Notes under the pieces: generated by a model | What the model saw: only the letters and a program-made list of their open reading frames with translations | Told to the model about the DNA's origin: nothing | The model's database searches: none | Shown: positions 2,596-8,963 of the stretch, piece by piece | Layout: each line of letters starts with the position of its first letter | Numbering within the stretch: the stretch's first letter is position 1 | Program-made: the position numbers and the translations under genes | Virus record (IMG/VR): IMGVR_UViG_3300029653_000151 | Location: 1 to 13,439 of that record | Strand: one strand, 5' to 3' | DNA length: 13,439 nt | From: a virus | Taxonomy: Duplodnaviria; Heunggongvirae; Uroviricota; Caudoviricetes

Positions 2596-3405
2596 TTATT
2601 CTTCTGAATTATCGATTACACTGTATTCCCCGGTTAATACAGAGGAGTCTGCCGGATCGATTGTCAGTGGTTCCTTTTCATCCATTGATACTGCACGCTG
2701 GATTTCAATTGAGACAGGCAGGTATTTAAACAGGCGACGAATAGCCGTTTTTTTTGCCATTTCTTCCCAGTGAGTTACCCATGGCCCGTTATTACCAGCC
2801 TTACTCTGGCTGCGCACCAGTTCAATCTGTTTGCGCGTCATAACTTCAAACTGAGTCCCTCCGTCTTTCAGTCTTGCGACAGCATAGACGTGGGTCACTG
2901 GTGCATCTTCGTTTTCTCCCGGGCGGTGTATTAACTTTTCATCAAGGCCAAATTCAAAACTAAACTCGTCACCTTCACGGACAACACGGGCTGACAGGCT
3001 GGCGATTTGACCAGAACGGCGAGCCAGATCAATCATGCCGCGATAACCAATGATTAGCTGAACGTTCTTTTTACCGCTCTTTTCGTTTTTATTACCAAAA
3101 GGCAGTAAATATGCGTGGCCGAGGGCGCTACCTGGCTCAAGGCCGAGCTGTGAACACTGAACGATCGCACTGACAAAACTCATGGTGTCACAGTTTCCTA
3201 GCGCCGGAACCTTACGAATTTCTGTGGTGGCGATACGTATCATTCGTTCAGCCGTCATATGGCGTGGGAGAGCTGCTGCCAGTTGCTCTTTCATTGATGG
3301 CTGATTAATAAAGCTGATCACGTCGTTATTTTTTACTGCTGCTGGTGCACGGTTTCCCTGGGTTTTTTGCAGATCGGCTTTTGCGATAGGTGGTTGCTTA
3401 GTCAT
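2596..3405 (-). CDS. recT: RecT single-strand annealing recombinase (269 aa)
   Basis: [36 protein letters not shown]... matches recalled Rac RecT throughout; start chosen at the MTKQ ATG (3405), which overlaps the recE 3' end. Confidence 0.92.
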
Positions 3406-6074
3406 TTGCATACTCCTTAGCCCAGCGGGGCAGTGATAACGTTTTAATAGCTGGCCATTCATCGGTATTCAGGCAGTCAGCCAGGGTCCTCAGATTGCGG
3501 TGATATTCCTGCTGGCCTGCCAGTTTTGCTTCTTCGCCCATCATGAAAATCTCAACCGGGTAACGTCCGCATTCAACAGTTGTGCTGGCAACCAGAAAAA
3601 CGAAAGTTGGCAGCACACCAAACTGTGCTTCATAACCGTCACTGTAGAATGCATCCTGAACGTGATAGCGGTAGTCGTAATAAGCCGTTTTGAATCGTTG
3701 AATATCCGCTGTGGTTTTCACGTCCATGATCCAGTGAAATTCAGGGATAATTTTGTCCGGACGGCACCGACACAAAATTCCTGTTTCAGGATCTTCCCAG
3801 TAAATTGATGATTCAGCGTGTCCGGCGCTTTCAACAAGCCATTGACCCAGCGGCAAAGCCATAACGCTCTGATACATGAGTTCAATTTTCCGGCCTTCTT
3901 CGGCAGTGATAACCGTTTTTCCTGTGCTTGCGCATTCCATCAGAAACGCTTTCTCCTCTTCTTTTCCGGCGGTTGTACGGCGGTTAAATTCAGGTGCCAC
4001 GATAAAGCGGTTACTGAATTCTTCCGGTTCAAGTACACGGCAGTGGAAAGCGGTTCCTAAATCGAGCGTTTTTGTCTTTGTGGTGTCCACTGGGGGCATT
4101 TTTACGCCACAAATACAGAGCCGGAGTATCAGCAATGTCGTCGAGCTGAGACTTACTGACACCGGGACCCGCGTGGTAATTCTCATTCGAAATTCCGTAA
4201 TAAATACCAGGCTCTATGTCTCCTGCGATTACGGGATCTGCGACTTCGCCAGTTTCATCACTGCAATCGCGATGCGGATCGCTGCCAGCATTCTCATTGT
4301 GCGGATGTTCAGGGCCTTCCATTTCCTCCGGATCTTTTTCCTGAGATTCATCCAGATTTTCTTCATTAAAGGTTTCCTGATATGTGGTGTCGCCCATCAC
4401 CGCGCCACAATCAGGGCAGTTGCCGCCACCGCTCTGACCGCGGGCGGCACAGACTTTTTCCGGTTCCTGTTGCGCTACTGGTTCAGATTGTTTCGTTTCT
4501 GGCTCATTTTTCTGTGCATTTTGGCTGTTTTGTTCCGCTTTCTGGTTGTTTTGTTCCGATTTGGGCTGGTTCTGGTTCACAGAATCTCGGGTTTCAATTC
4601 CCTTAACCCATTTCGGATCATTCGGGTCGCTAATCCCTTCAACAAATTCTCCGCGAGAGGCAGCCAGTAATTTGTCTGCATCGACAGGATTTTTGGGCGG
4701 AATGTTTTTCCGGGCTTCATAGAGTTCTGCCCGCAGTTTCTGATATTTCGCATCAACAGAATTTACCTGTGACTGAGCATCCAGCGGCTGCGTGTCCTGA
4801 TGATGTTCAGTTGCATCCGGTTCCACTGTTTCAGCCGTTGCCTGTTCATCTGCCATTGCGCAAGATGGTTGCAGTTTTTCTTCATCATCCTGTTTTTCTT
4901 CTTCTGTTACACGCTGCGGCATCGGGGCAGAGGAACGACCGCAGGCAATATCCACGATTTCTGGATCAGGGTTGGCATGATCAGTTTCAGTCAGTACTTT
5001 GTTAAGATATTCAGTGACGTGTGCGGGGATAACCTCGATCCCAATTGGTGCTTCTTTTACGGACGCAACCACGATGGCGCGGGAATAATCCAGCCCGCCA
5101 GGCATGGTGATGAATTTGTCGCGGAAAACAGAAAAGGGCGGTTTATTTTCAGCGATAATTTCCTCGACACGTTTAGCGTGTGCCGGATGAAGGTTATAAA
5201 TGTCCACGTCCATTGAACGAGCCAGTACGCCAGTGGCTACGTCGCGCGCCAGTGACGTCAGATCGTGAATGAAACCTTCGCCGCGATCGGTGAGGTTCCC
5301 GCCGCCAGCATTAGCGCCGGAAGCCGTGCGCGTGATGCGTGAAACACGATTTCCTTTCATCCACTCTTTTGTCAGCAGACCGCGATCGGTGTAGTCTGCG
5401 TCCAGGTATGCTTCGAAAAAAGCAGTCATCAGCCCCAGGCTTGAATTGCCTGGATTAGGGAAAACTCTGTCAGTATCACGCACCAGTTTGTGGAGATCGC
5501 GAATTTCCAGCGGGTCGAGCAGGCTGGTTTTGTGGGAAACAGCCAGGGCAGTAACGGCTGGTAGTTCTTCAGCTCGTGCAATGTGTAATGCCTGTAGTTC
5601 GTTGCGTGAAACGTGCGTTACCGGTTTTTCGCTGCCGTGTTGAGCAAGCCAGCGAATGGGCAGCTCCTGACCGGAAATCGGGAGTAGCATATTCTCCTCA
5701 ATCTCCGTCATGTCTTCGCCATTAACATTGGTATTGTCAGTGCTGGCTGGCTTGTCCTGCGCAGAGGATGAGGGCGCGATAAATACCATTGTGATGCCAT
5801 CTTCCCCGCCTTTTTCGTAACGGTTGCAGAATTCCGTATCAAATACGCCTTCTGGTGGAAGGTCATCAACAACGGGCAAATTGACGCGAACAGGTTTTTT
5901 AAAGTCATCTTCATCGTAGCCAGCATCGTCAATCGCAACAGCACCACGGGAGATGGCAATGGATAATTTTTTCGCTTCAGCCCAGTAGAAACCGCCTTTA
6001 ATACCGAGACGTTTTCTTACTTTGTCATTTTTTGCTTCGTAATACAGTGGGTAAACTTGTTTATCGGTGCTCAT
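3398..6074 (-). pseudogene. recE: recE (exonuclease VIII) split by a frameshift into a 681-aa N-terminal ORF (4029-6074) and a C-terminal nuclease-domain ORF (3398-4186)
   Basis: Two minus-strand ORFs in different frames overlap by 158 bp and together read as one RecE. The upstream frame reaches ...[10 protein letters not shown] then runs into nonsense and a stop; the downstream frame continues [19 protein letters not shown]... through the PD-(D/E)xK motif (RPDK...IMDVKT) to ...WAKEYAND. The switch sits at a G5 run (plus 4092-4096). Confidence 0.75.
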
Positions 6075-6180: not shown

Positions 6181-6450
6181 TCACCTTTTAATTTCATTGC
6201 AATCAGAGTTGCCAGAAATTCGGCTTTTTTTTTCTGCGGGCAGATTCTTTCCTATGTGCACCAGACACATTTTTTTAACACCATCGTTAAGTGTTTTAAC
6301 GTTGCCTGATGGACCGTCGATATCAACCACAGTGAATGGGGTTTCTTTATTTTCTGTCTTAATCACGTAGCCAATACGCTTTCCTTCCAGGGTAACTTCG
6401 TGAACAATGTCATCAGTAGTAACAACAGTGGCTTCATAACTGGTAATCAT
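6181..6450 (-). CDS. racC: RacC-like protein (89 aa)
   Basis: MITSYEATVVTTDDIVHEVTLEGKRIGYVIKTENKETPFTVVDIDGPSGNVKTLNDGVKKMCLVHIGKNLPAEKK... matches recalled Rac RacC; AAGGAG 6 nt upstream of the ATG at 6450. Confidence 0.75.
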   Translation of the reverse strand: MITSYEATVVTTDDIVHEVTLEGKRIGYVIKTENKETPFTVVDIDGPSGNVKTLNDGVKKMCLVHIGKNLPAEKKSRISGNSDCNEIKR

Positions 6451-6524: not shown

Positions 6525-6695
6525 TTAAAGTTCGTGTGCCATCTGGTCTTTTTCGGCACAGATTTCACTACAATATTTTTTCATTTCCGTCGTTGGTATA
6601 ACTCCACGCATGAAATGAAGTGGTCTTGTAATGATTTTGCTTTCTTCAATTTCTTTATTGCAAAGGTGATAAGCACATTTTATTTTCTTAGTCAT
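6525..6695 (-). CDS. ydaE: YdaE-like small cysteine-rich protein (56 aa), below the size cut-off of the supplied ORF track
   Basis: Hand-translated minus strand: [56 protein letters not shown], stop TAA at 6525-6527. Its ATG overlaps the kilR stop (TAATG), indicating translational coupling. Confidence 0.7.
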   Translation of the reverse strand: MTKKIKCAYHLCNKEIEESKIITRPLHFMRGVIPTTEMKKYCSEICAEKDQMAHEL

Positions 6696-6916
6696 TACCA
6701 TGACTCCGCCTTTACAGGTAAACCATCACGACCGAGGAAGACTTTAATCATGCAGTCAGAAATGCATGTTTTTGTAGTCAGGCTACGAATATAAAGTTTT
6801 CGCTTTTTAATATTGTTTGCCGAGGCGATATATGTCCGACCTTCATGAAGAACATAATCGCCAGGGGTCACACACTGACGTGGTATTTCATCAGTTCCGA
6901 AGTGATGAGCAATCAT
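6695..6916 (-). CDS. kilR: KilR cell-division inhibitor (73 aa)
   Basis: [73 protein letters not shown] matches recalled Rac KilR; GGAG 6 nt upstream of the ATG at 6916. Confidence 0.8.
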
Positions 6917-7477: not shown

Positions 7478-7659
7478 GTTGACCTCATTTCCCCTTAACG
7501 CCGGGTGGCGGAACGTTTTATCTACTGCGCTTTGTATCAATCAACAACTGCCGTCATGTTCGTATGCCTCAGGCTGGCTACTTAGCCCTGTTCAGTGGCT
7601 GGATAACTCGAGGTATTGTCCTGCCGTTCTCTGGTGGGGCGTTGTTTGGATATGCTTAT

Positions 7660-7710
7660 TAAACACAATACGTTTTCTTGTGTCAACACGGAATGTGTTT
7701 TGTGGTGGGT
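7660..7710 (-). promoter_or_regulatory. PL-like leftward early promoter with overlapping operator-like palindromes
   Basis: On the minus strand: -35 TTGACA (plus 7691-7696), 17-nt spacer, -10 TTTAAT (plus 7668-7673). Overlapped by inverted repeats acacaa-N9-ttgtgt (7673-7696) and aacac-N5-gtgtt (7695-7709) that resemble the palindrome between racR and ydaS. Confidence 0.5.
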
Positions 7711-7736
7711 GTCATATGATGATGGTACAAAAAAGC

Positions 7737-7759
7737 CCGCTGATAGCGGGCTGATTGGC
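7737..7759 (-). terminator. Rho-independent terminator downstream of racR
   Basis: Minus strand reads GCCCGC-tatca-GCGGGC followed by TTTTTT (plus: aaaaaa 7737-7742, gcccgc 7743-7748, tgata, gcgggc 7754-7759), 24 bp after the racR stop. Confidence 0.75.
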
Positions 7760-7782
7760 ATATTACTGTGATAGCAAGATCA

Positions 7783-8202
7783 TTACTCCGGTGGGGGATT
7801 ATCTTTAAGCCTGCCTCTCAAATATTTTTCTACATACTCATCGATTTCTTTTAGCCGGACTTCAAATAGCTCAATCATTCGTTGTTGTTCTGAGCCCGGT
7901 AGCTGGTTAAACAACTCAAGAAGTTTTCGTTGGGATTCATTTAACCACAATTCAGAAGATTCCTGTTCTCCAAAGAGGAGCTCAGGAGGAGATATGCCAA
8001 GTGCCTTTCCCAATATGACAGCGTCATGCACTCCAACATTTCTGCTGCCCGCCTCATAGTTACCTATACGCGATTGCGTCCATCCGCAGATTTCAGCAAG
8101 TTTTCCTTGAGATAAACCAAGCTTCTGCCTGCGCTCTTTAAGACGCATTGCAATTTTGTCATTGAGCCTACTAGCGGCAATTTTTTCGTTTTCTTTTTCC
8201 AT
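7783..8202 (-). CDS. racR: RacR-like XRE/cI-family prophage repressor (139 aa)
   Basis: N-terminal helix-turn-helix (LSQGKLAEICGWTQSRIGNYEAG); divergent from the cro-like ydaS across an operator-bearing intergenic region. Shorter than the 158 aa I recall for K-12 RacR, so allelic identity is uncertain. Confidence 0.7.
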   Translation of the reverse strand: MEKENEKIAASRLNDKIAMRLKERRQKLGLSQGKLAEICGWTQSRIGNYEAGSRNVGVHDAVILGKALGISPPELLFGEQESSELWLNESQRKLLELFNQLPGSEQQRMIELFEVRLKEIDEYVEKYLRGRLKDNPPPE

Positions 8203-8298
8203 TGCATCCTTGTATCACGAATCGTGATTTACATAAAACACAAAATAGCTTGACCATATAACACAAGGTGTGTTTAAAATTGTCATCGGAGGTTTTCA
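8203..8298. promoter_or_regulatory. Divergent promoter/operator region between racR and ydaS
   Basis: Perfect 15-bp palindrome atcacga-a-tcgtgat (8214-8228); second palindrome aacaca-agg-tgtgtt (8260-8274); -35-like TTGACC (8250-8255) and AT-rich -10-like taaaat (8275-8280); GGAGG 6 nt before the ydaS ATG. Confidence 0.6.
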
Positions 8299-8541
8299 AT
8301 GAACAAAATTTCAACATATCGAAAACAGCTTGGGCTGTCTCAAAGACAACTTGCTGTTCAGTTAGGGTGGATACAAAGCCGACTGGCAAATTACGAAGCA
8401 AATTTTCGTACCCCTGGACTAGAGGAGTGCAGAAAAATTGTTTCTACCCTTAATCGGCTTGGCGCTCATTGTGGACTTGACGATGTATTCCCCCCAGACG
8501 GTAAGCATAGCGAAAACAGCATAGGAGCGGTTGATTCATGA
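8299..8541 (+). CDS. ydaS: Cro-like helix-turn-helix protein (80 aa), YdaS-like
   Basis: HTH segment LGLSQRQLAVQLGWIQSRLANYEA; divergent from the repressor; stop overlaps the ydaT start (ATGA). Confidence 0.7.
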   Translation: MNKISTYRKQLGLSQRQLAVQLGWIQSRLANYEANFRTPGLEECRKIVSTLNRLGAHCGLDDVFPPDGKHSENSIGAVDS

Positions 8542-8963
8542 AAATCAGGCATAAGCACATCGAATCAGTGTTGTTAGCCCTGGCAGCCGAAAAAGGGCAG
8601 GCGTGGGTCGCTAACGCAATTACTGAAGAATATCTGCGCCAGGGGGGGGGCGGCGAATTGCCCCTTATACCAGGCAAGGACTGGAACAATCAGCAGAATA
8701 TCTATCACCGTTGGTTGAAAGGTGAAACGAAAGCGCAAAGGGAAAAAATTCAGAAACTGATCCCTGCGGTTCTGGCAATTCTTCCGCGCGAGCTGCGTCA
8801 CCGACTCTGCATCTTCGATACCCTGGAACGCCGTGCATTACTGGCGGCGCAGGAAGCGTTGAGTACGGCAATTGATGCGCATGATGATGCAGTCCAGGCC
8901 GTTTACCGGAAAGCACATTTCAGCGGTGGTGGGTCGCCCGGCGATTCTGTCGTAGTGCATTGA
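8538..8963 (+). CDS. ydaT: YdaT-like protein (141 aa)
   Basis: Position directly after ydaS with ATGA overlap; length matches the roughly 140 aa I recall for K-12 YdaT. Contains a G9 homopolymer (8642-8650) encoding Gly-Gly-Gly-Gly. Confidence 0.65.
   Translation: MKIRHKHIESVLLALAAEKGQAWVANAITEEYLRQGGGGELPLIPGKDWNNQQNIYHRWLKGETKAQREKIQKLIPAVLAILPRELRHRLCIFDTLERRALLAAQEALSTAIDAHDDAVQAVYRKAHFSGGGSPGDSVVVH

Follow-up and report, generated by a model that had tools for sequence, protein, structure and literature searches.

Positions 7656-7699 of the window (i.e., the whole stretch of 13,439 nucleotides that was analysed) most likely hold the early-left promoter and operators of a Rac/Qin-like lambdoid prophage, the equivalent of PL/OL, under the control of a 139-aa DicA-like repressor. 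We assign this reading a probability of roughly 0.8. Control of both divergent early promoters by the prophage repressor is textbook for lambdoid phages, and the operators found on either side of the repressor gene suggest that one repressor very probably shuts both early operons here.

The window is ~99.9% identical to NZ_OZ547117, an E. coli prophage whose integration site adjoins yebY. Its arms are Rac-like as judged by tblastn with the K-12 Rac proteins (recT 99%, ralR 98%, kilR 94.5%, ydaT 93% and ydaV 96%), whereas the central control module between them is, by sequence comparison, not Rac-like. This module is present in 153 of 5426 complete E. coli genomes (~3%), and its carriers include O145, O103, O111 and some O157 strains. 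The coordinates of the features discussed below are collected in Table 1.

Table 1 Features of the control module and adjoining genes; promoter, operator, leader and terminator assignments are predictions
Feature	Position	Strand	Sequence or remark
-35 hexamer of the PL-like promoter	7686->7681	minus	TTGACA, read from sequence
-10 region of the PL-like promoter	7656-7663	minus	TTTAAT (7663->7658, 17-nt spacer) or TAATAA (7661->7656, 19-nt spacer)
OL2	7685-7699		AACACGGAATGTGTT, perfect; abuts the -35 on its upstream side, with a 2-bp overlap
OL1	7662-7676		AACACAATACGTTTT, one mismatch; takes up the promoter spacer, with a 2-bp overlap onto the -10
OR1	8260-8274		AACACAAGGTGTGTT, perfect; within the spacer of the PR-like promoter
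OR2	8237-8251		AACACAAAATAGCTT, degenerate; 23 bp from OR1, overlapping the PR -35 by 2 bp
Candidate OR3 or Cro site	8215-8229		ATCACGAATCGTGAT, perfect palindrome; adjoins the repressor start codon
PR-like promoter	8250-8280	plus	TTGACC (8250-8255), followed by TTTAAA (17-nt spacer) or TAAAAT (19-nt spacer)
Leader of the leftward transcript	7478-7650	minus	~100-170 nt, directly downstream of the promoter
DUF1391 gene (ydfA/ydaF-like, 50 aa)	7477->7325	minus	first leftward gene; Pfam DUF1391 E = 5e-30
DicF-like sRNA	7139->7088	minus	Rfam RF00039, 60.9 bits versus a gathering score of 48
kilR	6695-6916	minus	tblastn 94.5% to K-12 Rac
Prophage repressor gene (139 aa)	7783-8202	minus	N-terminal HTH_3 and DicA-like C-terminal part
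Intrinsic terminator of the repressor gene	7752->7727	minus	8-bp stem with 6 G-C pairs, 3-nt loop, T-run
Cro-like HTH gene (80 aa)	8299-8541	plus	Pfam HTH_3; followed by ydaT (8538-8963, Pfam YdaT_toxin)

The PL-like promoter lies on the minus strand ~40 bp past the terminator of the repressor gene, a hairpin followed by a T-run, and thus just where the original prediction had placed it. TTGACA-17-TTTAAT is the sole sequence in the 13.4-kb window that matches the sigma-70 consensus at 11 or more of 12 positions on either strand. However, shuffled sequences contained 0.23 such matches on average and at least one in 19% of cases, so that statistical significance cannot be claimed for the hexamers by themselves. 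Our promoter scan missed the site because TTTAAT has no A at position 2, a conserved base of the -10, and in the alternative TAATAA the T of position 6 is missing. The hexamers and spacer of the original prediction are therefore present, but to call the promoter near-consensus was an overstatement in view of this -10. A promoter scan of the minus strand between the terminator and the DUF1391 gene returned nothing better.

The homologous promoter of phage pAEv1818 reads TTGACA-18-TAATAT. In independently fetched relatives the -10 is invariant, and the -35 is changed only in single sequences, at 7681 and 7682. Moreover, six other repressor types carry a TTGAC-type -35 with a 17-nt spacer 17-21 nt before a conserved leader, as exemplified by TTGACA-17-TATAGT in K-12 Rac and TTGACA-17-TATATT in another locus (L060). 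The promoter, although imperfect in its -10, would thus be placed and oriented as a lambdoid early-left promoter whose position is kept across repressor types, and transcription is predicted to start near 7646-7652 (i.e., at ~7650).

Inverted repeats overlapping this promoter had been said to match those of the intergenic region upstream of the repressor gene, and a motif comparison confirmed this. AACACNNNNNGTGTT occurs perfectly at 7685-7699 and 8260-8274 and with one mismatch at 7662-7676. The 15-bp operator form AACAC-N5-GTGTT has three matches in the window versus 0.39 expected, with none outside these two regions, and this number was reached in 0 of 200 shuffles. Site starts are 23 bp apart in the left and right regions alike. 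Both promoters also share one register, in which the -35 is followed by 4 nt, a 15-bp operator and TTTAA, while a second site overlaps the -35 by 2 bp. As this layout is equal when read the way each promoter transcribes, the left and right units are mirror images, as in lambda, and the lambda-like OL/PL-OR/PR architecture of the original prediction therefore stands with respect to motif, spacing and register.

Two operators are recognisable on the left, and two plus a variant palindrome on the right, versus three per side in the lambdoid scheme. A third left operator was found at 7700-7726 neither by eye nor in a search for CAC-N5-GTG. The variant palindrome next to the repressor start codon is one base off the operator half-site, lies 22 bp from OR2 (centre to centre) and has a single position that varies among 46 relatives. 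The same ATCAC-N5-GTGAT site is present in pAEv1818 upstream of the PL -35. Judging from these features, the palindrome is a candidate OR3 or Cro site.

To follow the conservation of the sites, we used 18 relatives chosen without reference to the motif, 12 of them via the DUF1391 protein and 6 via whole-region BLAST. Within this set, 1 of 30 half-site positions in OL1, OL2 and OR1 is variable versus 14 of 23 positions in the centres and linkers (Fisher p = 4e-6). In the left region, the variable positions cluster at 7669-7693, that is, in the operator centres and the 4-nt linker. In OL1, the centre positions 7669-7671 are variable and the sole half-site change, at 7675, occurs in one sequence. 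The same pattern of half-sites and centres holds in 46 unique sequences, a set in which 7648-7668 is invariant by construction owing to the fetch pattern. Among these 46 relatives, the half-sites of OL2 are invariant and all five of its centre positions vary. OR1 likewise combines invariant half-sites with a variable centre in the relatives, and the left half-site of OR2 is invariant.

The variable positions stand out as polymorphism hot spots, comprising the operator centres (7667-7671, 7690-7694 and 8265-8269) and the linker (7677-7680). Nucleotide diversity at these hot spots is 0.12-0.24 (0.14-0.24 for the PL operator centres and the 4-bp linker), whereas the repressor gene has 0.02 at its third codon positions and the half-sites have 0.00, and the 46 unique sequences comprise 27 OL haplotypes. 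The hot spots are probably the positions that the repressor does not contact. Tentatively, and with the odds against it, they could also mean diversifying selection acting on the affinity of the repressor or the strength of the promoter, and hence an induction set-point tuned strain by strain.

The repressor gene encodes a protein with an HTH_3 domain (Pfam E = 1.6e-13); Pfam shows HTH families only, and an S24 peptidase or self-cleavage domain is absent in this search. It aligns with DicA of Qin at 29% identity over 129 of 139 aa (E = 3e-15). The NCBIfam DicA model gives it 57 bits, below the naming cut-off of 101 bits, and by this score the protein is a distant relative of DicA rather than an orthologue. 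The same repressor was found in none of the phages of the phage collection, where the top relatives are 66% and 63% identical. Since it lacks a self-cleavage domain, inactivation would probably proceed through an antirepressor rather than through RecA-stimulated cleavage, by analogy with DicA, for which an antirepressor was also considered the more likely route of induction (PMC10448788). The terminator of the gene starts 30 nt past the stop codon according to the terminator scan and is nearly invariant among the 46 relatives. No convincing hexamers of a PRM equivalent were seen at 8203-8260, and dicA has likewise been reported to lack convincing promoter hexamers (PMC3441716).

The rightward gene had been taken for ydaS. 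Its product is instead a Cro-like protein that shows no similarity to YdaS and is also unrelated to DicC of Qin. The HTH of this protein aligns with that of the repressor (WIQSRLANYEA versus WTQSRIGNYEA, 45% identity over 42 aa).

We then compared operators across repressor types. The repressor of Citrobacter phage Chris1 (ON041214) is 66% identical and has an identical recognition helix (QSRIGNYEAG), and the DNA of this phage has no BLAST similarity to the window except in part of the repressor gene. Chris1 carries AACAC-N5-GTGTT twice on either side of its repressor gene (4 matches versus 0.07 expected), with a downstream pair that is 23 bp apart and whose first site is fused to TTGAC. Repressors with altered helices are accompanied by altered outer half-site bases on both sides of the gene: CTCAC-N5-GTGAG in the E9/pPE4 type (65% identical, helix SGSSRIANYE) and GACAC-N5-GTGTC in pAEv1818 (helix STASRVGNYE). 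Across 13 repressor types, obtained from 80 DUF1391-anchored IMG/VR loci plus the window, K-12 Rac, Qin and the E9 locus, a left region has more 7-mers in common with the right region of its own type than with right regions belonging to other types (mean 9.4 versus 3.2, permutation p = 5e-5).

A comparison of the window with the E9-type prophage also bears on the borders of the exchanged segment. The E9-type prophage encodes a 99% identical Cro-like protein (L011, 1965-2213) despite the 65% identity of its repressor and CTCAC versus AACAC half-sites, and the two prophages become homologous again from the cro ATG on one side and from just past the PL -10 on the other. Because a near-identical Cro-like protein serves two repressor types with different operators, the swapped module appears to exclude cro, and the exchangeable immunity module to consist of PL/OL, the repressor gene and OR/PR.

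Several other explanations of the sites have to be weighed against this reading. According to the original prediction, they are bound by RacR. The Rac-like arms (kilR, recT and ydaT) would favour a K-12-type RacR, as would K-12 Rac itself, which has the RacR consensus twice around the equivalent promoter. However, the window encodes no homologue of RacR, the repressor shows no similarity to K-12 RacR (BLASTP E = 2.4), the published consensus WTAGGC-N3-GCCTAW has zero matches in the window with up to two mismatches allowed, and the window motif AACAC-N5-GTGTT is absent from K-12 Rac. RacR as the repressor of this window is thereby ruled out in favour of a DicA relative, and we regard action of a K-12-type RacR at these sites as extremely improbable. 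It is also unlikely that the Cro-like protein is the chief ligand of the sites, or that it shares them with the repressor, each with site preferences of its own as in lambda, instead of leaving them to the repressor alone. The resemblance of the two HTH motifs would allow this, and repressor and Cro-like protein use common operators in lambda and CP-933P (PMC8630535). Yet the 99% identical protein of the E9-type prophage adjoins CTCAC-type operators, and the outer operator bases therefore track the repressor and not Cro. Use of the sites by both proteins fits a PL/OL under repressor control, whereas use by Cro only does not. The Cro-like protein may occupy the same sites, so that sequence alone does not tell which protein binds.

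The hexamers might also be inactive as a promoter, in which case the sites would be no more than a roadblock or a distal anchor for repressor looping to OR, and transcription of the leftward genes would come from elsewhere. The missing A of the -10 and the frequency of comparable matches in shuffled DNA would agree with this. We nevertheless consider it quite improbable, since the minus strand offers nothing better before the DUF1391 gene, the -35 and spacer are equally far from the leader in six other repressor types, both hexamers are invariant or nearly so among relatives, and the counterparts in Qin and CP-933P are active (PMC10448788, PMC8630535). Finally, a chance resemblance of the left and right regions has some room, because half-sites of 5 bp are short and the word AAACACA by itself shows no enrichment in the window (5 matches versus 2.6 expected). 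Against this stand the full-site count, equalled by none of the 200 shuffles, the identical spacing and promoter register in both regions, the conservation of half-sites next to variable centres, and the recurrence of the pattern in phage Chris1, so that the probability of mere coincidence is negligible.

We next turn to the leftward transcript of the proposed PL. Directly downstream of the promoter lies a leader that is conserved in at least eight repressor types including K-12 Rac. A role as structured, put- or nut-like RNA was unsupported: the single-sequence fold had a z-score of +0.8, the consensus fold was weak (-10 kcal/mol, with two covarying pairs and no significant covariation), and the leader had no match in Rfam and no similarity to HK022 in phage BLAST. 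A terminator-like hairpin with a weak T-run is present antisense to the leader (7617-7641, plus strand).

The original prediction let the leftward operon begin with ydaG. However, tblastn with the K-12 proteins detected no YdaG in the window, and likewise no RacR and no SieB; the DUF1391 gene and DicF come first. The DUF1391 protein is 92% identical to YdfA and 88% identical to YdaF, and the DicF-like sRNA, located between the DUF1391 gene and kilR, has its own terminator at 7105->7090. DicB gave no tblastn match on the window, with kilR in its place. As judged from its sequence, the start of the leftward operon is dicBF-like. Past kilR, the annotation of the near-identical record continues leftward with ydaE-like, racC-like, recE, recT, ralR and rcbA-like genes to ~2146. 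Because the DicF terminator intervenes, expression of kilR and recET from the PL-like promoter would need read-through. The dicB gene of Qin is thought to depend on a similar read-through of the DicF terminator. The claim that one repressor governs both operons is therefore supported by the operators common to both sides, but needs the qualification that kilR and recET are reachable only past this terminator.

Some further observations concern the Rac-like arm on this side. In the window, recE is represented by two overlapping ORFs (4029-6074 and 3398-4186, spanning 3398-6074) and the racC-like gene by two tblastn segments. The annotation of NZ_OZ547117 gives recE as intact, and the window differs from this record by three indels, one being a T9 versus T8 run near 6225. 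The split genes reflect either real frameshifts or homopolymer sequencing errors. The SraC/RyeA and SdsR/RyeB sRNA genes are found at the prophage's integrase end, on its host side, and the antitoxin sRNA RalA lies opposite ralR (462-606 and 2168-2346 are the positions given for these sRNAs taken together).

Among characterised systems, the closest relative of this region is dicBp/DicA of Qin, while the immunity region of Chris1 is its closest twin at the level of sequence. DicA represses dicBp, and its operators lie on both flanks of dicA (PMC10448788, PMC3441716). Both prophages thus have a repressor of the same broad family (29% identity), a promoter right after the repressor gene that is directed away from it, an operon with DUF1391 first (ydfA, 92%) and with DicF, and operators on both sides of the repressor gene that are related to those of the divergent region. 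They differ in that Qin has operators of the TTAGT...ACTAA type instead of AACAC-N5-GTGTT and in that the window carries a Cro-like protein unrelated to DicC and a cargo of kilR and recET instead of dicB. Chris1 shares with the window the 66% identical repressor and its identical helix, the motif twice per side, the downstream pair at 23 bp and the fusion to TTGAC. In contrast, its neighbouring genes differ, with a cII-type activator annotated among them, and its DNA is dissimilar by BLAST beyond part of the repressor gene. A literature search found no experimental work on the immunity region of this phage.

With lambda, the window has in common that divergent early promoters flank the repressor gene and that repeated operators of a single consensus overlap each promoter and are arranged as mirror images, with ~23-24 bp between centres. 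Unlike in lambda, however, the sites measure 15 bp (5-5-5) instead of 17 bp, the left side has no more than two recognisable ones, the OL-OR distance is 575 bp as compared to ~2.3 kb, an S24 self-cleavage domain is missing from the repressor, and the first gene is DUF1391, with no equivalent of N or nutL recognised. In CP-933P, reporter fusions have shown that PL933P with its OL operators is regulated by PaaR2 and YdaS (PMC8630535). This prophage is also Rac-like and carries ydaT, and its PL resembles its PR in the -35 and -10 and has operators common with the divergent region (PMC8630535). It differs from the window in its PaaR2 repressor, in its operator sequence and in the toxin-antitoxin genes between the repressor gene and PL.

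K-12 Rac resembles the window in its arms, layout and conserved leader, whereas its repressor and operator (WTAGGC-N3-GCCTAW) are unrelated and it has ydaG, sieB and a better -10. Upon loss of racR expression in K-12, ydaG, ydaF, kilR, ydaE and racC are up 40- to 70-fold (PMC6765115). The operator consensus of RacR has been described with footprints confined to the racR-ydaS region (PMC9638921), and its regulon as uncharacterised (PMC11014345). In our comparison, TTGACA-17-TATAGT is located on the minus strand between ydaG and racR of K-12 (NC_000913.3, about 1419626-1419668; L002, 8627-8669). One perfect and one 1-mismatch match to the RacR consensus, at L002 8630-8644 and 8655-8669, overlap the -35 and the spacer plus -10 of this promoter. 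We found no description of these ydaG-racR sites in the RacR literature (PMC9638921, PMC11014345).

Taken together, our analysis suggests the following mechanism. Dimers of the 139-aa repressor would bind the two 15-bp AACAC-N5-GTGTT sites of the left region, where OL1, lying in the spacer and touching the -10, and OL2, abutting the -35, would jointly occlude RNA polymerase. The same repressor would act on the same motif at the mirror-image PR-like promoter (8237-8274) before the Cro-like gene, so that both early operons would be off in the lysogen. Once the repressor is inactivated, probably by an antirepressor, transcription would start near 7650 and proceed leftward via the leader, the DUF1391 gene and DicF and, after read-through of the DicF terminator, into kilR, ydaE, racC, recE, recT and ralR.

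The finding represents a standard lambdoid arrangement and leaves the concept of the lambdoid switch unchanged; its new element is the operator specificity that is predicted here for a repressor so far uncharacterised. It corrects a tempting mis-annotation, as control by RacR is not implied by Rac-like arms. Moreover, it yields a testable operator consensus, AACAC-N5-GTGTT, together with a map of the promoters, for an immunity type that ~3% of complete E. coli genomes carry. The cargo that it silences would be kilR (an inhibitor of cell division), the sRNA DicF, the recombinase RecET and the toxin RalR.
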